Virus record (IMG/VR): IMGVR_UViG_2737471838_000003
Span: 1-36,968 of that record
DNA: 36,968 nt
Direction: 5' to 3' (one strand)
Source: a virus
Lineage: Duplodnaviria; Heunggongvirae; Uroviricota; Caudoviricetes
Made by a program: the position numbers and the translations under genes. Positions 68 to 36,968 of this stretch are shown one piece after another. The notes beneath the pieces were generated by a model. That model made no database searches. It saw nothing but the letters and a program-made list of their open reading frames with translations, and was not told the origin of the DNA. Every line of letters begins with the position of its first letter. Position 1 is the stretch's first letter.

Positions 68-246
68 ACCGAAAAATGCGAGAATTTCTCAATCTGTAGC
101 CTGCAAATTGCGCCCATGAATTCTTTCCAAGAGAATCAGTTTCGGCTGGAAATCATTCAATACTCACACTAAAACAAAAAGCCCGCTTATGGTGGACTGC
201 AGGCTTTTAGATTCCGTGATTTAAAAACAATAGTTATAGAAACAAA

Positions 247-1455
247 TTACCAGCCTACAGCAATACCCCCTCCGATTACTGCTCCATCAGTATTATTCCA
301 TGAAGACGATGCACGAATATTGGTGTTTTCATTAAGTTTGTATTGAACACCAACAGCTACTGCATTACCGTTTCTATAGTTACCAACCCCAACGCCGGCA
401 CTAAATGTCTGGTTATTCACATACGGGATATTGGTCATTGCTGCTACGGAAGCAATACCTGCATTAGCTTTTTTAGCATTAGCTTCTATCTTATCATTCA
501 GCTGCTTAAATGTTGAATTTATCTTCCCATTAATTTGGTTAAATTTTGTATCAGTATATGCGAATGATTCTTGTTTTGCTGATTGTATGTTTTTATTAAT
601 AACACCGTTATTTTTCGTAACTTCCTGATCAGTGTATGCCATTGATTCGCTTTTGGCATTATTAATATTCTGATTTATCACAGCATTATTTTTGGTAACC
701 TGCTGATCTGTATATGCCAGTGATTCATTCTTGGCATTATTGATGTTTTGATTAATTACGGTATTATTTTTAGCTATCTCATTCCCAGTATAATCTTTCA
801 GTTGCTTAACGTTAACACCATCAGTATCCTCAGTACCTGCGGCAACATGGGTCAATTGTCGATTAGTATTACCCGTCCCAAAAGATACACTATACTCTCT
901 GTCAGTTGTACTTCCCCCGCCGATGGCAACACTATTATTATGTTCAGCCACACTCTGTGAGCCTAGTGAGATGGCATTTTCTGCATTAGATGTAGCCCCT
1001 ACACCAATAGCTAATGTATCTCCTGCAGTCGCCTGGGCGGAGGAACCAAATGCAACACTGTTTTCCCCGGTTGCTTTAGACGCAGCACCTACACTTGTAG
1101 AATTAGCGACTGCCTCACTACCCGCACCATTTGCTATAGCTGAATCACCGTTTACTTTACTAAATGAACCAATGGCTACCGAGTTATTTCCAACAACATT
1201 TGCATTTGCGCCAATAGCTGACGATGAGTTACCTTGAGATGAAGAATATGAACCAATTGCAGTATTATAGGCTCCTTCGGTTTTTGAAACAGCGCCAATT
1301 GTTGTAGAAGAAGAACCTGAAGCATTTGCATATGCACCAATAGCTGTCGCATTACTATCAGTTGCCTGGCTATTATCACCGGCATTATAAGAATTATATG
1401 CATAAGAATTTGCTGAAACTGTAAATATAACAGAGGCTACAAATAGTTTTTTCAT
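247..1455 (-). CDS. YadA-like trimeric autotransporter adhesin, Eib-family-like (prophage-borne)
   Basis: Likely start is MKKLFVASVIFTVSANSYA (classic signal peptide) at 1455 rather than the ORF-track start at 1497, though no clear SD precedes it. Repeated head motifs (NSVAIG, SVAIG, TAIG), a repetitive coiled-coil stalk and a C-terminal anchor ending in aromatic W (GIASVAAMTNIPY...GGGIAVGW). Position beyond the tail fibre genes matches where Eib genes sit in prophages. Confidence 0.75.
   Translation of the reverse strand: MKKLFVASVIFTVSANSYAYNSYNAGDNSQATDSNATAIGAYANASGSSSTTIGAVSKTEGAYNTAIGSYSSSQGNSSSAIGANANVVGNNSVAIGSFSKVNGDSAIANGAGSEAVANSTSVGAASKATGENSVAFGSSAQATAGDTLAIGVGATSNAENAISLGSQSVAEHNNSVAIGGGSTTDREYSVSFGTGNTNRQLTHVAAGTEDTDGVNVKQLKDYTGNEIAKNNTVINQNINNAKNESLAYTDQQVTKNNAVINQNINNAKSESMAYTDQEVTKNNGVINKNIQSAKQESFAYTDTKFNQINGKINSTFKQLNDKIEANAKKANAGIASVAAMTNIPYVNNQTFSAGVGVGNYRNGNAVAVGVQYKLNENTNIRASSSWNNTDGAVIGGGIAVGW
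550..771 (-). repeat. Three tandem ~66-bp repeats encoding 22-aa stalk repeats (KNNxVINQNINNAKxESxAYTDQxVT) inside the adhesin gene
   Basis: Three near-identical peptide units in the translation; near-identical nucleotide units visible around 590-790. Confidence 0.6.
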
Positions 1456-2030
1456 AGAAATGACGTATGTTAAATAGATTGAAAAGATAAGATTCAAATC
1501 AATTAAATGACGCTTTAAAAATAAGCGGCAGGATTTTATTCATCTGATAAAAATAGCGCAAGCGTTGTCTTATATGGAATATTCAGATAAGTCTTATCAA
1601 AAAAAGCGGTATAACAAATACATAACATTGCAGCCATTATAAATACATTATAAAAATGACAGAGATATTTAATTAAATCCAAAGCATTTTTTCAATATGG
1701 ATTTCGAAGAACTTGTTATAGTACATTAATCAATCAATTATTGGTATTTCGCTCACTGTTCATATAGTTTTAATACATCAATGCATAAGAACATTTTCTC
1801 ATTCATAAAAGCGATAAAAACTGTTGTACCTTATATTGTTAATGTTTGGTAACAAAGACAAATCCGACAAGGCATTGATCATCCCCTATGATACCCATAG
1901 AAAGAATTATCTGAAATATAATAACAATATAAAGTATATTATTGCTAATGAAACTATATGATAGCTTCACATTCAGCAATACCTGCTCAACCTTATCTCT
2001 GGAAATGAACATTGCTAACTTTCCTACTCC

Positions 2031-2250
2031 TTAATCGTTCTCCCAGAGCGCATCATCCACACCGACAATCCCCTCAGGCATCAGCCAGGTGACATTTTCC
2101 GCTAATGGGCTGGTTCAGAGATAAATAGTGCGTCCCCGGAAGCCAAGTCAAAGAGCATTTTTCCCCTGTGACCTTCAACGGCTACTTACTGTTTAAAAAC
2201 AGCTACGATGCCAGCATAGATACTCTTGAATACGATGTACTACGTTTTTT
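2031..2250 (-). pseudogene. Remnant of a second tail fibre assembly (tfa) gene, broken by frameshift and stops
   Basis: Minus-strand translation gives MLFDLASGDALFISEPAH-stop in one frame and ENVTWLMPEGIVGVDDALWEND-stop in another; ASGDALFISE and ENxTWL match the middle of lambda Tfa as I recall it. No intact ORF. Confidence 0.4.
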
Positions 2251-2251
2251 C

Positions 2252-2818
2252 TTATTCTGGACTGAACTCCCTAACCTGCTTCAAATCCAGGAGATTGCTC
2301 AGTTCCTCTTTCATTTCACGCTGATGACGATAAATCTCATTATTGCGATCAACCTGCGCCTGCGCCATAGCTGCAGCCAGCTCCTCCAGTTCCGTCATCG
2401 ACAGTTTCACCTGCTGATTATCAGCATCACTCCATGTCATAACGTCCCACTGCCCTGAGTCAGCCCCTGCAGCCATTACCACCGGGTAAAGGCGGGCCAG
2501 CGAGTCGGGGCCGCCATTCCAGGTGTGTCCGTTCCATTCGAATGTGAACGGCTGCGCTTCCTGTTCTGTGCGCCAGGCTTCGATTTCCCACTTTTTGGCA
2601 TCTCTGGCTGCGGCAATAACTTCAGGCGTGACTGTGAACGGGGCGATTTCACCCCATCTGCCACTCTGCAGTTCCTGCCAGATTTGCCGGCCAGTTTCTG
2701 CTGTATCATTTGCCGAAGCTGTGTATGGAAGTGGCATTTCCATACCTGAAAACTCGACCATGCAGTCAACATCTCCGGTTTCAAGATACCTTTGTTCGCT
2801 GATTTTTTTTATTTTCAT
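2252..2818 (-). CDS. tfa: Tail fibre assembly / chaperone protein (Tfa-like)
   Basis: ATG at 2818 overlaps the stf stop (TGATG) with an AAGGA SD 7 nt upstream; classic stf-tfa synteny. Sequence similarity to lambda Tfa is weak, so the call rests mainly on position. Confidence 0.6.
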   Translation of the reverse strand: MKIKKISEQRYLETGDVDCMVEFSGMEMPLPYTASANDTAETGRQIWQELQSGRWGEIAPFTVTPEVIAAARDAKKWEIEAWRTEQEAQPFTFEWNGHTWNGGPDSLARLYPVVMAAGADSGQWDVMTWSDADNQQVKLSMTELEELAAAMAQAQVDRNNEIYRHQREMKEELSNLLDLKQVREFSPE

Positions 2819-5307
2819 CACATCGTCCTTATAAAAGCAGCAATAATAAACTCACCTTCTCCGGTGTAATCCGGGGTTCCGGATAATGCACGGTAAACAC
2901 CCGGCAATGTGTGCTTCTCTGTACCAGAAAGCCCAATCTTCGGCGACGATAATGCCCCCTCCGGAACACTGAATACCACGGGAGTAAGGACGGAGCCCGG
3001 GTAATATTGCCCTCGTACGACGCTAGCTGTTTTAGTGCTGCCACGGCTATTAAAGGCTGCCAGTGTTATGCTTCCAGCATACGGATCACCATAATTATCG
3101 TTTGTGGTCATGCTCAGGATTTTGGCAATATCATACAGGTCAATATTTATTTTCACCCATTCACTCAGTGAAGGGCCATGTATGGCATCGTATGTTGCCC
3201 GATACAGTTCACCGTTCATCCCGTAAAAAACAGCCATCTTCAGCATCAGCGGGACAGTAAGGTTATTCCGCATCTCATCAGCGAAAAATAAATCAATCAC
3301 ACCTGTAAACTGTACTTCCGGTATAATTTCGCAGTCAGCGCTGACCGTATACCGCCCCGGTGTGGCATTTGAGATCCAGTCAAGAAGCACTTCCTTCGAC
3401 GAAAAGCTGAGAACGTCACCTTTTGTGAAGATATGCCCGAATCCCAGACTTCCTGCAACAGCGGCCCGCCCCTGCGTTCTGTCATAAATGCCTGACTGAA
3501 GCCCATAATTTCCGCCTGCTGCTGAGTTTCCACTATTTCCATTGATACCCAGAACGTCACACATCTCTTCGGCTGTGGATTGTGACAACAGCTGTTTCCC
3601 TTTTTCAGAAACAGGAGCCAGAGAACACTGCCCGTTACCGCTAAAACTGGGAAACCCATCTTCACCAGATGGAAGACTGCCTAACGCAGTCAGAACGGGA
3701 TTTAAAGGCTGTTTTCCGGCCAGCATCTTCATTATCGTTACGGAAAACGCCGGGTCATTACCCAGCGCCTCCGCCAGTTCGTTCAGCGTGTCCAGGGTTT
3801 CAGGAGATGAACCCACAAGAGCAGCAAGCAATTTGCGGACAAACGCCGCATTCACTGTTTCCAGACCTGAAGCATCGTCCGGTGGTGTCGGTGTCATAGG
3901 GGTACCGGTGAAGACCGGACTATCCAGTGACGCTTTTGTCTTCACCTCATTCATGACGTTACTGACTGCAAGGGATGTGGCGGCCTCTGTCTGCGAAGTG
4001 CTGTCAGTACGGTTACTGAGCTTGACAACTCCCTTTGTGGTCGTACTGGCATCTTCCAGGCCCACAGCAGATGCAATCTCCTCTGCCCGTTTTGCCGCAT
4101 TTTCTGCGCGTGTTGCTGCAGACTCAGCAGAACTTTTGCTCTGCACTGCCGCTGTCGCACTGCCAGCTGCCTCTGTCGCCTTCGCGGATGCCGTCGTGGC
4201 ACTGCCCTGCGCCTCTGACGCCAGCCTTGCCGCCTCATCTTTTGAAGCTGACGCCGATGATGCTGATGACGCCGCCGAACTGGCGGACGATACGGCTGCC
4301 GTTTTTGAGGATTCTGCGCTGGCTTCCGACGCTTTCGCGTTCGTCTCTGATGTCTTCGCTGCGGAAGCAGATCTCTCTGCTGCACTGGCCTGTTCAGCGG
4401 CTTCACCAGCCTTCGTTGTGGCTGCTGAAGCGGACGATGCAGCGCTTTCTGCCGATTTTCCGGCGGCGGTGGCACTGGCTGAGGCCTCCTCCGCTTTAAC
4501 TGACGCCTCACGGGACGATGATGCAGCGGCAGTTTCTGAGCCTTCCGCTGCAGAAGCGCTCTGTGCCGCTGCCGTTTCAGAAGACCTTGCGTTCGTCTCG
4601 GACGTTTTTGCCGCCTTCGCGGAATTGCCTGCCGCCGTTGCCGAGGACGCTGCACCACTGGCGCTCAAGGCGGCGTTCGTTTCTGATGATTTTGCCGCCT
4701 CTTTTGAAGCCGACGCATCCCTGGCTGAGGTGGCAGCTTCTGACGCTTTCGTGGTCGCGGTGGATGCAGAAGTGGCGGCTGATTGTTGTGACGCTGCCGC
4801 ATTCGTTTCTGACATTTTCGCCGCACCGGCACTGGTGGCCGCCGCGCGTTTTGAGGACTCTGCAGCAGCGGCACTTTTTGATGCCTCAGTGGCCTTTGCT
4901 GATGCCGTTTCTGCGCCGGAAGACGCTTCCTGAGCCGACGTCGCAGCCTGTCCGGCGGACGTGCTGGCGGCGCGTGCTGAGTCCGCAGCATCAGTCGCAT
5001 GGGTTGCCGCCTCACGGGCTGATGTACCGGCATCGCTGGCTGATTTTTTCGCAGCTGCCGTATTCTGTGCCACTGAGGACGCGTTACGCGCCACCTCTTC
5101 CACCATCAGCTCAAAACGGCGCAGTGCCTCCGGACGGGCATCATCCTCCGTCATGGCACCGAGAAAATCATTCAGCGTACCGGGTTGAGAATCTTCATAC
5201 ACGGTGATGGTCCCGGCATGTGACGGCGGAAAACCGTCAACCAGCAGGATGACAGCGTACTGGCCATACTCAACATCCATACTGTAACGCCCGGCTTCAG
5301 CCCCCAC
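2818..5307 (-). CDS. stf: Side tail fibre protein, Stf-like, N-terminally truncated by deletion (likely pseudogene)
   Basis: From GRYSMDVEYGQY onward matches the lambda Stf N-region and Ala/Ser/Thr-rich repeat region, with a divergent C-terminal receptor-binding part. About 45 N-terminal residues are missing; the ORF opens at a GTG inside the J fusion junction. Confidence 0.8.
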   Translation of the reverse strand: MGAEAGRYSMDVEYGQYAVILLVDGFPPSHAGTITVYEDSQPGTLNDFLGAMTEDDARPEALRRFELMVEEVARNASSVAQNTAAAKKSASDAGTSAREAATHATDAADSARAASTSAGQAATSAQEASSGAETASAKATEASKSAAAAESSKRAAATSAGAAKMSETNAAASQQSAATSASTATTKASEAATSARDASASKEAAKSSETNAALSASGAASSATAAGNSAKAAKTSETNARSSETAAAQSASAAEGSETAAASSSREASVKAEEASASATAAGKSAESAASSASAATTKAGEAAEQASAAERSASAAKTSETNAKASEASAESSKTAAVSSASSAASSASSASASKDEAARLASEAQGSATTASAKATEAAGSATAAVQSKSSAESAATRAENAAKRAEEIASAVGLEDASTTTKGVVKLSNRTDSTSQTEAATSLAVSNVMNEVKTKASLDSPVFTGTPMTPTPPDDASGLETVNAAFVRKLLAALVGSSPETLDTLNELAEALGNDPAFSVTIMKMLAGKQPLNPVLTALGSLPSGEDGFPSFSGNGQCSLAPVSEKGKQLLSQSTAEEMCDVLGINGNSGNSAAGGNYGLQSGIYDRTQGRAAVAGSLGFGHIFTKGDVLSFSSKEVLLDWISNATPGRYTVSADCEIIPEVQFTGVIDLFFADEMRNNLTVPLMLKMAVFYGMNGELYRATYDAIHGPSLSEWVKINIDLYDIAKILSMTTNDNYGDPYAGSITLAAFNSRGSTKTASVVRGQYYPGSVLTPVVFSVPEGALSSPKIGLSGTEKHTLPGVYRALSGTPDYTGEGEFIIAAFIRTM

Positions 5308-6980
5308 ACGCTGTATCCGGCAACGCCGTCAGGAACACGGCTCACTTTTACCTTCACGCCGTCGGTGACGGACTGGACCTCCACGCTGACCGGATTGCCA
5401 CTTCCGTCAACCAGGCTTATCAGCGTGGTACCGGAGGATGGCAGCGTGATTTCACGGTCGAGCGTCAGCGTCCGGGTCTGGCTGTTCACCGCCAGCACGC
5501 GCCCGCCGGTGCTGATACCCGCATAGTCATCATCGCAGATTTCAATGACATCCCCCGGTACATGGCGAAGCCCTTCCGCACCCACGCTGAAGTCCACGGT
5601 CTGCGTTTCCAGCAGTTCCGTTTTAATCAGCCACAGCCCGGCGCGGTGCGCCTGCCCCCGACTGGTACAGCCAAAGGCATCCATCTTCGTGACGTTACGA
5701 CCGTAACGGGCAATGGCCTGCGTGTCCTCCACAAGCTCTGTCGCCGTCTCCCAGCCGTTATCCGGGTCAATCCAGTTCACCTCAACGGCATTATGGCGGT
5801 CCTTCAGGGCGCTGAAGCTGTAGCGGAACGGCGCGCCATCATCCGGCATCACCACATTACTGCGGTTATAGGTCCACACCTTATCTGATGGTCGGTCCTG
5901 CACGAACGTCAGCGTCTGCCCGTTCCATATCGGCATACAGCGCATCGCCGAGCAGAAATCACTGAGCACATCCCACGCCTTGCGCTGTGTGGTCAGCCAG
6001 GCATTACAGGTGATGCGCGGCTCCGTGCCGCCAAAGCCGTCCGGCACCGACTGGTCGCAATTCTGGCCGATGACATACAGCGCCCATTTATCCACATCCG
6101 CCGCACCAAGACGTTTCCCCATGCCGTAGCGCGGATGGGTCAGCATATCCCACAGACACCAGGCCATGTTGTTGCTGTATGCCGGTTTAAACGTTCCGTC
6201 CCAGATACCGCTGTATTGCCGCGTCTGCGGGTTATAGTTCGACGGCACCTGCAGAATACGCCCGCGCAGATGATAATTACGGCTCACCTGCTGGCTGCCG
6301 AACTGCTCCGAGTCCACCTGCACACCGACCAGTGCCGTGTTCGGGTAGCACTGTTTCACATCGATGATTTCGGTGTATGACGACCAGAGCGTTTTGTTCT
6401 GCAGCTGGTCTGTGGTGCTGTCCGGCGTCATCCTGCGCATCCGTATACTGAACGGGCGCGGCGGCAGGTTACCCACCACCACCGAGGCCAGATACTGCGA
6501 GGTGGTTTTGCCCTTAATGGTGATGTCTTTTTCCGTCACCCAGCCACCATTACGCTGTATCTGAACCAGCAGGCGGACTTCCGACGGATTCCTGTCCCCC
6601 TTTGAGGTGGTTTCCACCAGTGCCTGCACGCCGAAGGTAACACGCAGTCGGTCAATGTTTGCCGACGTGATGGTCCGGGTGATCGGCGTGTCGTATTTCA
6701 CTTCCGTACCCAGCACCGTCTCGGAGCCGGAGGATTCAAATCCCTCCGGCGGTGTCTGCTCCTGCTCACCGGCCCGGAACACCACCGTGACGCCGGAGAT
6801 GTTGGTATTCCCCTCACTGTCCAGCACTGGCGTACTGTTCAGCAGCACGCTTTTTAATCCATCCACCGGACCTTCAATCGGCCCTTCGCTGATGGCGTCT
6901 ATCACGCTCAGCATCTGGGATGATTTCAGGTTGTCCTTCGCTTCGCGCGGGGTATGCCCCTTACTGCTGCCTTTACCCAT
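5172..6980 (-). CDS. J: Tail tip host-specificity protein J, N-terminal half only, C-terminally truncated (likely pseudogene)
   Basis: MGKGSSKGHTPREAKDNLKS... is collinear with lambda gpJ for about 555 aa, then the last 45 codons are out-of-frame read-through into stf sequence. Confidence 0.85.
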   Translation of the reverse strand: MGKGSSKGHTPREAKDNLKSSQMLSVIDAISEGPIEGPVDGLKSVLLNSTPVLDSEGNTNISGVTVVFRAGEQEQTPPEGFESSGSETVLGTEVKYDTPITRTITSANIDRLRVTFGVQALVETTSKGDRNPSEVRLLVQIQRNGGWVTEKDITIKGKTTSQYLASVVVGNLPPRPFSIRMRRMTPDSTTDQLQNKTLWSSYTEIIDVKQCYPNTALVGVQVDSEQFGSQQVSRNYHLRGRILQVPSNYNPQTRQYSGIWDGTFKPAYSNNMAWCLWDMLTHPRYGMGKRLGAADVDKWALYVIGQNCDQSVPDGFGGTEPRITCNAWLTTQRKAWDVLSDFCSAMRCMPIWNGQTLTFVQDRPSDKVWTYNRSNVVMPDDGAPFRYSFSALKDRHNAVEVNWIDPDNGWETATELVEDTQAIARYGRNVTKMDAFGCTSRGQAHRAGLWLIKTELLETQTVDFSVGAEGLRHVPGDVIEICDDDYAGISTGGRVLAVNSQTRTLTLDREITLPSSGTTLISLVDGSGNPVSVEVQSVTDGVKVKVSRVPDGVAGYSVWGLKPGVTVWMLSMASTLSSCWLTVFRRHMPGPSPCMKILNPVR

Positions 6981-9056: not shown

Positions 9057-9385
9057 CAGTTCACCACCTGTTCAAACTCTGCGCTGAACTCAACACGCAG
9101 CATACTGACCCGCGACGACCATTTTGCGCAGGTCACCTTTATCTGCCGCCACTCATAAGGCGGCGTCCACAGAAAGGATTTCCAGCCACCGTGCTCAGCC
9201 AGAAACGACTCCAGCGCCGTGGCCTCCCAACGGGGAACAGAAAGCGTCACGCTGTACGTTTTCAGGTCGGCATTCAGCCCGGCAGGCGCTCGCTGGGAAT
9301 AGCCATCACCAAAGCGCACCTTTCTTACAGAAGGGGCCGAAGCCACATCCATACCGGGTTTCACTTTCCAGCGGAAGGTTTTCAT
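9056..9385 (-). CDS. M: Minor tail protein M
   Basis: 109 aa; MKTFRWKVKPGMDVASAPSVRKVRFGDGYSQRAPAGLNADLKTYSVTL... matches lambda gpM; adjacent to L. Confidence 0.9.
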   Translation of the reverse strand: MKTFRWKVKPGMDVASAPSVRKVRFGDGYSQRAPAGLNADLKTYSVTLSVPRWEATALESFLAEHGGWKSFLWTPPYEWRQIKVTCAKWSSRVSMLRVEFSAEFEQVVN

Positions 9386-35732: not shown

Positions 35733-36968
35733 ATGTCTAAATTACCAACAGGTGTCGAGATTAGAGGTAGAAACATTCGCATCTGGTTCATGTTTCGAGG
35801 AAAACGATGTCGGGAAACATTAAAAGGCTGGGAGATTACAAACAGTAATATTAAAAAGGCCGGAAATTTAAGAGCGCTGATAGTTCATGAAATAAACTCC
35901 GGTGAATTTGAGTATTTAAGACGTTTTCCCCAGTCCAGCACTGGGGCAAAAATGGTGACAACGAGAGTCATAAAAACGTTCGGGGAGCTTTGTGATATCT
36001 GGACAAAAATTAAAGAGACAGAGTTAACAACAAACACAATGAAGAAAACGAAATCACAATTAAAAACACTCAGAATAATAATTTGTGAAAGTACCCCGAT
36101 ATCATATATTCGTTATAGCGATATCTTAAACTACCGGAATGAACTGCTGCATGGAGAAACGCTTTACCTGGATAATCCAAGATCCAACAAAAAAGGAAGA
36201 ACCGTGCGCACAGTTGATAACTATATCGCCCTGCTCTGTTCGCTGTTACGTTTTGCGTATCAGTCGGGATTTATATCAACCAAACCATTTGAAGGAGTAA
36301 AAAAATTACAGCGAAACAGAATAAAGCCTGACCCGTTATCTAAAACAGAATTCAATGCATTAATGGAAAGTGAAAAAGGACAGAGCCAAAACTTGTGGAA
36401 ATTTGCCGTTTACTCCGGGCTTCGTCACGGGGAACTGGCAGCTCTGGCGTGGGAGGATGTGGATTTCGAGAAGGGAATTGTGAATGTCAGAAGAAACCTG
36501 ACGATACTTGATATGTTCGGTCCCCCAAAAACAAATGCCGGGATCCGGACGGTAACATTACTACAGCCAGCTCTTGAAGCACTGAAGGAGCAATACAAAC
36601 TGACCGGGCATCATCGCAAAAGCGAAATCACTTTTTATCATCGGGAGTACGGCAGAACCGAAAAGCAAAAACTGCATTTTGTTTTCATGCCCAGGATGTG
36701 TAACGGAAAACAGAAACCTTATTACTCGGTAAGCAGTTTGGGTGCGAGATGGAATGCAGCAGTAAAACGTGCTGGTATTCGCCGCCGTAATCCGTACCAT
36801 ACGCGACATACTTTTGCCTGCTGGCTGTTGACGGCAGGAGCGAACCCGGCATTTATAGCCAGCCAGATGGGGCATGAAACTGCGCAGATGGTGTATGAAA
36901 TTTACGGTATGTGGATTGATGACATGAACGACGAACAGGTAGCTATGTTGAATGCGCGGTTATCGTAG
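35733..36968 (+). CDS. int: Tyrosine-type site-specific integrase (Rac IntR-like)
   Basis: 411 aa ending at the window edge with a TAG stop; C-terminal catalytic region with R...HxxR...Y context (…NPYHTRHTFACWLLTAGANPAFIASQMGHETAQMVYEIYGMW…). Confidence 0.9.
   Translation: MSKLPTGVEIRGRNIRIWFMFRGKRCRETLKGWEITNSNIKKAGNLRALIVHEINSGEFEYLRRFPQSSTGAKMVTTRVIKTFGELCDIWTKIKETELTTNTMKKTKSQLKTLRIIICESTPISYIRYSDILNYRNELLHGETLYLDNPRSNKKGRTVRTVDNYIALLCSLLRFAYQSGFISTKPFEGVKKLQRNRIKPDPLSKTEFNALMESEKGQSQNLWKFAVYSGLRHGELAALAWEDVDFEKGIVNVRRNLTILDMFGPPKTNAGIRTVTLLQPALEALKEQYKLTGHHRKSEITFYHREYGRTEKQKLHFVFMPRMCNGKQKPYYSVSSLGARWNAAVKRAGIRRRNPYHTRHTFACWLLTAGANPAFIASQMGHETAQMVYEIYGMWIDDMNDEQVAMLNARLS

Follow-up and report, generated by a model that had tools for sequence, protein, structure and literature searches.

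The stretch of DNA analyzed here (the window) is the complete, 36,968-nucleotide record IMGVR_UViG_2737471838_000003 from a virus of the Caudoviricetes, and comparison with the annotated chromosomes of Escherichia coli ZYB62 and C41 showed it to be a Rac-type lambdoid prophage in ttcA. Near its left end, a minus-strand open reading frame (ORF; 247..1455) is intact over 402 codons plus a stop, and the identical gene, whose product is named "YadA-like family protein" in RefSeq (WP_077779486.1), is present in E. coli C41 and ZYB62. An initial annotation of the window had described the product as an Eib-like trimeric autotransporter adhesin (TAA) carried as prophage cargo. We consider it highly probable that the gene encodes a functional, short TAA of the YadA type and that it is a moron located at the attR end in a defective prophage of the Rac type. 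A TTG start at 1497, giving 416 residues, was dropped in favor of the ATG at 1455 because the conserved MKK leader and the RefSeq start are both found there; homologues begin with MKK or MKN. The features of the gene are as follows.

247..1455, minus strand: short YadA-like trimeric autotransporter adhesin, complete ORF (identical to the RefSeq coding sequence)
1399..1455, minus strand: signal peptide, residues 1-19 (MKKLFVASVIFTVSANSYA), predicted cleavage after SYA (read from the sequence)
853..1398, minus strand: left-handed parallel β-roll head, residues ~20-201, ~13 turns (Pfam, AlphaFold2, Foldseek)
793..855, minus strand: neck/connector, residues ~201-221 (LTHVAAGTEDTDGVNVKQLKD) (Pfam YadA_stalk, PF05662)
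559..792, minus strand: three tandem 78-bp (26-residue) stalk units, residues 222-299, each starting YT(G/D) (Tandem Repeats Finder, unit table)
715-792 (plus-strand numbering): unit 1, starting at Tyr222, YTGNEIAKNNTVINQNINNAKNESLA (protein register)
637-714 (plus-strand numbering): unit 2, starting at Tyr248, YTDQQVTKNNAVINQNINNAKSESMA (protein register)
559-636 (plus-strand numbering): unit 3, starting at Tyr274, YTDQEVTKNNGVINKNIQSAKQESFA (protein register)
481..558, minus strand: degenerate fourth unit, starting at Tyr300, residues 300-325 (YTDTKFNQINGKINSTFKQLNDKIEA), running into the pre-anchor coiled coil
250..414, minus strand: YadA-type membrane anchor, residues ~347-402, four β-strands, Trp end (Pfam, AlphaFold2, Foldseek)

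A Pfam search for anchor, head, and stalk domains, which had been proposed as a check on the initial annotation, found all three above their gathering scores: YadA_head (PF05658) in six stretches (6.4e-17), YadA_stalk, i.e., the neck (PF05662), at residues 200-241 (1.9e-7), and YadA_anchor (PF03895) at residues 347-401 (9.5e-8; 32.4 bits vs. a cut-off of 22.7). The head keeps a perfect 14-residue register ("NSxAIGxxSxAxG") for ~13 turns, the neck is near-identical to those of YadA, BpaC, and SadA in alignments, and the C-terminus reads ...GIAVGW. Searching the sequences of solved structures returned the collagen-binding head of YadA (1p9h) as the top match (6.5e-22), with further matches to BpaC, SadA, BoaA, AtaA, and the YadA anchor, while EibD (2xqh) reached merely 3.8e-5. 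An AlphaFold2 (AF2) model of the monomer, built from a 24-sequence alignment with a mean predicted local distance difference test score (pLDDT) of 76, consisted of a β-roll (residues 23-201), a low-confidence neck, a single uninterrupted helix of 126 residues (216-341), and anchor strands at residues 351-360, 363-375, 378-387, and 392-400. Foldseek comparison against the PDB placed the heads of BoaA, BpaC, and YadA first and EibD seventh, with the anchors of Hia, AtaA, and YadA thereafter (TMt 0.64-0.86 for the anchor matches). Read by eye, the N-terminus (MKKLFVASVIFTVSANSYA followed by YN) is organized like a Sec signal with n, h, and c regions, these being MKK, 12 hydrophobic core residues, and S-Y-A before a Tyr; this feature is kept in homologues, with the "ANSYA" end identical in Proteus relatives, and residues 1-21 have a pLDDT <50 in the model. 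Since the Pfam head, neck, and anchor, the matches to solved structures, the AF2 and Foldseek results, and the terminal Trp all concur, the assignment of the protein to the TAAs (type Vc) is secure. ORF, Pfam, and AF2 thus agree with the initial description of a 402-residue TAA with a signal peptide, a YadA-like head, and an anchor ending in Trp, and we infer that the adhesin trimerizes and is displayed on the cell surface.

The stalk had initially been described as carrying three tandem repeats of 66 bp (22 residues) across 550-771. Three units are indeed present and that span is roughly correct, but the unit length is not: Tandem Repeats Finder gave a period of 78 (score 221) over 595-792, and BLAST of the repeat region against itself aligned 145 bp at 76.5% identity with a shift of 78 (E = 2e-23), i.e., units of 78 bp or 26 residues. 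Pairwise, the three units share 57/78, 54/78, and 50/78 bases, and the degenerate fourth unit, which lies inside the continuous helix (216-341), shares 36-40 of 78 bases with the others. In the repeats, the hydrophobic moment has its maximum at a period of 3.70 residues, and power at 3.5 is close to nil. Each 26-residue unit thereby spans seven helical turns, equal to one hendecad plus one pentadecad. A right-handed supercoil with a YxD motif characterizes the upper stalks of both YadA and EibD; by analogy, the upper stalk of the window protein would be a right-handed coiled coil with the same motif. Other stalks are built from units of different length, with three 41-residue units (26+15) in the Proteus columbae homologue and 30-residue units (15+15), each with a YTD start, in presumptive YalA, a plasmid-encoded TAA considered below.

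Strain comparison bore out the idea, raised with the initial annotation, that repeat units could be gained and lost, as alleles with three, four, and five units were found. Because a large word-indexed protein search yielded no close E. coli relatives (best, 52-54%) and an exact-sequence look-up in the protein collection found neither of two alleles, prevalence was taken instead from megablast of 5426 complete E. coli genomes. The gene was detected in 29 of these, on the chromosome each time and at 94-100% identity, and the carriers were mostly livestock, wildlife, and Shiga toxin-producing E. coli (STEC) isolates negative for the locus of enterocyte effacement. Together with the plasmid copies, the alleles fall into three lineages.

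Prophage lineage: uspF-ompN prophage end; alleles of 402, 428, and 454 residues
Island lineage: insertion sequence (IS)-rich island adjoining asrA, ~90% DNA and 94% amino acid identity; alleles of 428 and 454 residues plus one frameshifted
Plasmid lineage: IncF plasmids; alleles of 403, 429, and 455 residues

The plasmid copies come from E. coli and E. albertii, where IncF plasmids carry them (66-83% in tblastn local matches; 81-83% global protein identity). Across the fetched alleles of the three lineages, each step in length equals exactly one 26-residue unit, and alleles with three, four, or five units occur independently in the three lineages, the window allele being the shortest form (three units). 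In the prophage lineage, the added units (types E and M) join the 5' part of unit 2 (B) to the 3' part of unit 1 (A), and such extra units look like hybrids formed by unequal crossover or slippage between neighboring units. Since all of the length changes are in frame, they represent a length polymorphism, not phase variation. The 5-unit genomes showed an apparent second place for the gene, as the repeat region makes its 3' part register separately; a second gene copy was rejected by the place-joining rule applied to the megablast results, the places themselves not being inspected. The asrA-island allele of GPEC349-628 (3001-4355 of its fetched locus) measures 1355 bp, not 1365 bp, as also noted for GPEC1176. 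On a plasmid of E. coli JNE132847 (NZ_AP028095.1, 5245-5631), only the 3' 387 bp of the IncF-lineage gene, encoding the stalk end and anchor, recur at 99.7% identity by megablast, within a coding sequence labeled "YadA-like family protein"; a different passenger may thus have been placed on the same anchor by recent domain shuffling.

Between the three lineages, dN/dS by the Nei-Gojobori method was 0.06-0.07, dS reaching 1.6-1.8. Constraint acts on the head as well as on the stalk/anchor, and the signal peptide alone is relaxed. A ratio of ~0.07 argues for a working protein and not a decaying remnant.

Around the gene, the window is organized as follows.

168..208, minus strand: probable intrinsic terminator, ~40 nt after the stop codon, 10-bp stem AAAAGCCUGC...GCGGGCUUUU followed by UGUUUU (folding)
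1456..1548, minus strand: conserved ~93-bp upstream leader, common to the asrA-island copies (limit of homology)
1511-1527: small hairpin in the upstream leader (consensus scan)
1549..2251: AT-rich (27-39% GC) non-coding spacer with a remnant of tfa (composition)
2252-2821: tail-fiber-assembly gene (tfa), DUF4376
2818-5307, minus strand: tail-fiber gene (stf), phage_tail_N, 829 residues with a long Ala/Ser-rich low-complexity middle
15316-15609: bor (Lambda_Bor, 1.3e-30)
35733-36968: intR, with recET, kilR, and ydaT upstream

The attR site is marked by a 43-bp imperfect repeat of the 5' region of ttcA (81% identical), which lies ~86-130 bp beyond the left end of the window; since attR is situated just outside it, the adhesin gene is the last ORF inside the prophage. 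The order stf, tfa, adhesin, attR agrees with the position next to the prophage tail-fiber genes that had originally been noted, and a tfa pseudogene remnant is annotated at the matching position in C41, A2, and ZYB62. The GC content of the adhesin ORF is 39%, that of the ~700-bp upstream spacer 27-39%, and that of the tail genes 55-60%. Prophage and island copies are homologous only across window positions 229-1548, and homology with the plasmid copies extends over the ORF alone; the adhesin gene therefore moves as a very compact cassette. The low GC content of the ORF, its place as the last gene before attR, its hairpin flanks, and the copies in an IS island and on plasmids together identify it as cargo. 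In strains A17, EC11, and JNEC-KY180, the cassette and a leader with the DUF4376/tfa remnant lie beside uspF, behind a tail module of the baseplate J/gp47 type. Such different tail modules behind the cassette suggest that the right end of the element is kept or exchanged between unrelated prophages at ttcA. As for the flanking signals, the terminator candidate was found by folding alone, its 12-nt loop having been missed by the consensus scan, and the z-score over the whole 91 nt was unremarkable; the hairpin at 1511-1527 may insulate the adhesin gene from read-through of the late operon. Hits in the promoter/terminator consensus scan were no more frequent than in shuffled sequence.

Among characterized adhesins, YadA of Yersinia, the prototype short "lollipop" TAA, resembles the window protein in its signal peptide, NSVAIG-S β-roll head, neck, stalk, and four-stranded anchor, as well as in its YxD-type stalk motifs and non-heptad periodicity. 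The window protein differs in its longer head (~13 turns) and 26-residue stalk modules, and whereas YadA is encoded on pYV, the window lineage is borne by prophages, islands, or IncF plasmids in Escherichia. YadA_autotrans (NF033478, an exception model of NCBIfam) was the best family match, yet its 110.8 bits are far below the cut-off of 750, so the window protein is not a YadA orthologue. Like the window lineage, Saa, the STEC autoagglutinating adhesin, varies in protein length by the in-frame number of stalk repeats in each allele; its unit, however, is reportedly 37 residues long as opposed to 26. The closest relatives outside Escherichia are YadA-like proteins of P. columbae and P. penneri, which are 51-54% identical over their full length, share the ANSYA end and a near-identical pre-anchor and anchor, and are likewise encoded by low-GC genes; they differ in the 41-residue units of P. 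columbae and in that the copy of P. penneri ATCC 33519 is frameshifted. The GC content of the P. columbae homologue (4995-6377 of the fetched locus; 51% identity) is close to that of its flanks. These low-GC Proteus relatives hint at a Morganellaceae origin of the adhesin gene. Stalk end and most of the anchor (residues ~268-390) also match, at 37-47% identity, "tail proteins" of the lytic phages Privateer and J3S of Proteus, vB_CsaP_009 of Cronobacter, and FSL SP-058/076 of Salmonella, which suggests that stalk/anchor-like modules of TAAs are reused in virion proteins.

Searching the literature turned up no relevant report on this specific prophage TAA, but a group fitting its description has been named. 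Kotaka et al. 2026 (PMC13534694) describe Yal ("function-unknown adhesin-like") proteins as EibG-like BLAST hits that are without a saddle or N-terminal domain and are nearer to Saa and YadA. The window protein, having neither saddle nor N-terminal domain, matches this description, and it differs from the Cla proteins, which carry the saddle. JNEC-KY180, one of the strains of that study, has a 454-residue allele of the window gene at its uspF locus. Presumptive YalA, the single TAA of plasmid pKY178, shares 37% identity with the window protein (E = 2e-81); its stalk has comparable YTD repeats, and it is nearer to the window protein than any Eib; a TAA of an IncI1 plasmid is 37.6% identical. 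That the window protein is YalA itself was rejected, as pKY178's sole TAA is merely 37% identical, and the plasmid-lineage gene is absent from pKY178. For the window protein, the second of the two Yal clades, which are placed near Saa, is a likely but provisional label.

The Eib label therefore had to be weighed against the YadA-type reading. If the window protein were a true member of the Eib family, it would bind the Fc of IgG or IgA through its stalk and thereby confer serum resistance, as had been predicted from its supposed type. Several features favor this, as the Eib proteins (EibA, C, D, E, F, G, and H) are also short TAAs with a YadA-like head, a stalk with a right-handed segment, and a plausible role in serum resistance, and they are encoded by morons located downstream of lambdoid tail-fiber genes and flanked by stem-loops. 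The window gene occupies the same slot as eibA, C, D, and E, behind the tail-fiber gene and tfa, its product is close in size to EibA (392 residues), and the EibD fragment 2xqh gave the weak sequence match and seventh-ranked fold match reported above. However, when EibA, EibC, EibD, and EibE were taken from the original ECOR-9 prophage records and aligned globally, the window protein was only 22-31% identical to them, while these four Eibs are 53-88% identical to each other and members of the family share at least ~50%, the value below which PMC13534694 set the Cla proteins apart; BLASTP against EibE gave 26% identity with 21% gaps. Multiple alignment placed gaps opposite the ~100-residue N-terminal domain of the Eibs and opposite their saddle, and in the AF2 model the head begins at residue ~23 and the helix is unbroken, so that neither element is present. 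The P-EibA and P-EibC loci showed no homology at the DNA level, and their flanking genes orf-156, orf-60, and eaa do not occur at the window locus. The conserved Fc-binding stalk segment is also missing: the Eib segment RTDRIDYAVGAIDGRVTRN aligns weakly with KSESMAYT----DQEVTKN, in which a Tyr matches Y388 of EibD but an Ala stands opposite the Asp that precedes it ("MAY"). This Asp-to-Ala difference at the RID-Y motif (Y387/388 in EibD) is suggestive, the alignment being weak there; according to PMC13534694, D391 of EibG is required for IgG-Fc binding, which is lost in D391A. The same study describes the saddle-containing ClaA and ClaB, with <50% similarity to the Eibs, as binding no IgG, although they are nearer to the Eibs than is the window protein. 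Membership in the Eib family is thus very improbable, and the Fc binding predicted from it falls with it; Eib-style IgG-Fc binding by the window protein is not expected. What survives of "Eib-like" is only a positional and architectural analogy, i.e., a moron after the tail-fiber genes with hairpins on its flanks.

Two further explanations were weighed. The position directly after stf and tfa, together with the 37-43% identity of residues 268-390 to "tail proteins" of lytic Proteus, Cronobacter, and Salmonella phages, would suit a structural or host-range component of the phage, e.g., an accessory tail fiber with a TAA-like coiled coil. To this we assign next to no probability, since the protein has a Sec signal peptide and a full four-stranded anchor with a terminal aromatic residue, no phage genes accompany the ORF in the asrA/IS island or on IncF plasmids, the ORF has 39% GC and the tail module ~58%, and 700 bp of AT-rich spacer plus a hairpin lie in between. 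Alternatively, the gene may be a silent, H-NS-repressed hitch-hiker that is without current function in the host and is intact by chance or through recent acquisition. Several observations do weigh against a functional adhesin. Reading of the sequence upstream of the gene revealed no convincing -35/-10 elements or Shine-Dalgarno sequence, and the 27% GC of this DNA suggests silencing by H-NS; the gene is rare (29/5426 complete E. coli genomes) and resides in a defective prophage; and the asrA-island allele of GPEC349-628 is frameshifted, split into two annotated ORFs, and naturally inactivated. In addition, the units of the window allele are merely 64-73% identical to each other, making it a relatively poor substrate for further slippage. 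Nonetheless, a dN/dS of ~0.07 over three lineages that have diverged to a dS of 1.6-1.8 indicates long-term selection, and every change in length is in frame. There is also a precedent for genes that are silent yet functional, as eib genes are said to be silent in K-12 until activated. We therefore regard the hitch-hiker explanation as very improbable, and prefer that of a functional short YadA-type TAA.

For such an adhesin, the established TAA pathway suggests how the protein would reach and act at the surface. The 19-residue leader would direct it through Sec, after which the C-terminal four-stranded segments of three subunits would form a 12-stranded outer-membrane barrel with the assistance of the β-barrel assembly machinery. 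The passengers would then thread out and fold as a lollipop with a ~13-turn β-roll head, a neck, and a trimeric coiled-coil stalk of ~126 residues, of which the upper part would consist of 26-residue "YTD..." modules with hendecad and pentadecad packing in a right-handed supercoil like that of YadA and EibD. Unequal recombination between the 78-bp units would add or remove whole in-frame modules (3, 4, or 5), each shifting the reach of the head by ~3.9 nm while the gene stays on. Judging from YadA, Saa, Eib, and Cla, adhesion or autoaggregation is the most likely role of the protein, perhaps with complement resistance. As stated in PMC13534694, complement protection is provided by many TAAs, EibG, ClaA, and ClaB among them. 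The bor gene attributed to this cryptic prophage by the initial annotation is indeed present (15316-15609), and the proposal that bor and the adhesin provide two serum-resistance factors is reasonable as a hypothesis. More tentatively, and with less confidence than we would need to favor it, we suggest that the gene may represent a short-TAA lineage of its own that probably arose in Morganellaceae (Proteus-like), that travels as a near-bare ORF cassette among prophage, asrA island, and IncF plasmids, that its reach is tuned by 26-residue modules, perhaps to the depth of the O-antigen or capsule, and that its ligand or activity is unlike those of Eib (IgG Fc) and YadA (collagen).

Serum survival and adherence of E. 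coli can be altered by outer-membrane proteins that prophages encode, Bor, Lom, and Eib among them, and labeling every short prophage TAA as "Eib" leads to wrong predictions of antibody binding. The window gene belongs to a separate, rare lineage that is strongly constrained by purifying selection, passes from one to another of prophage, island, and plasmid, and is polymorphic in stalk length in frame; its 3-, 4-, and 5-module alleles constitute a natural series for the effect of stalk length on adhesin function. Otherwise, the biology is ordinary for TAAs, the protein having already been annotated automatically and the class being well known.

The remainder of the prophage is defective. Its tape-measure ORF (9382-11877) directly abuts a truncated ORF for the terminase large subunit (11928-13412), and the portal, protease, decoration, and capsid genes of the near-identical C41 prophage are missing from it; in ZYB62, a still larger deletion has brought the terminase gene directly beside the tail-fiber gene. 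A minus-strand ORF of 602 residues (5172-6980), which overlaps the start of the tail-fiber ORF, carries the J-protein domains FNIII-A_GpJ and Phage-tail_3 and falls well short of the complete gpJ gene of C41 (3399 bp). A second cargo module, the anti-phage defense pair IetAS (22487-26000, minus strand), is found in the early region of the prophage.

22487-24742, minus strand: IetS, S8 peptidase, 751 residues (PADLOC, E = 1e-270)
24780-26000, minus strand: IetA, AAA ATPase, 406 residues (PADLOC, E = 2e-131)

Finally, a tRNA-Arg gene (anticodon TCT) lies on the minus strand at 17687-17762, between the lysis and late-regulation genes.

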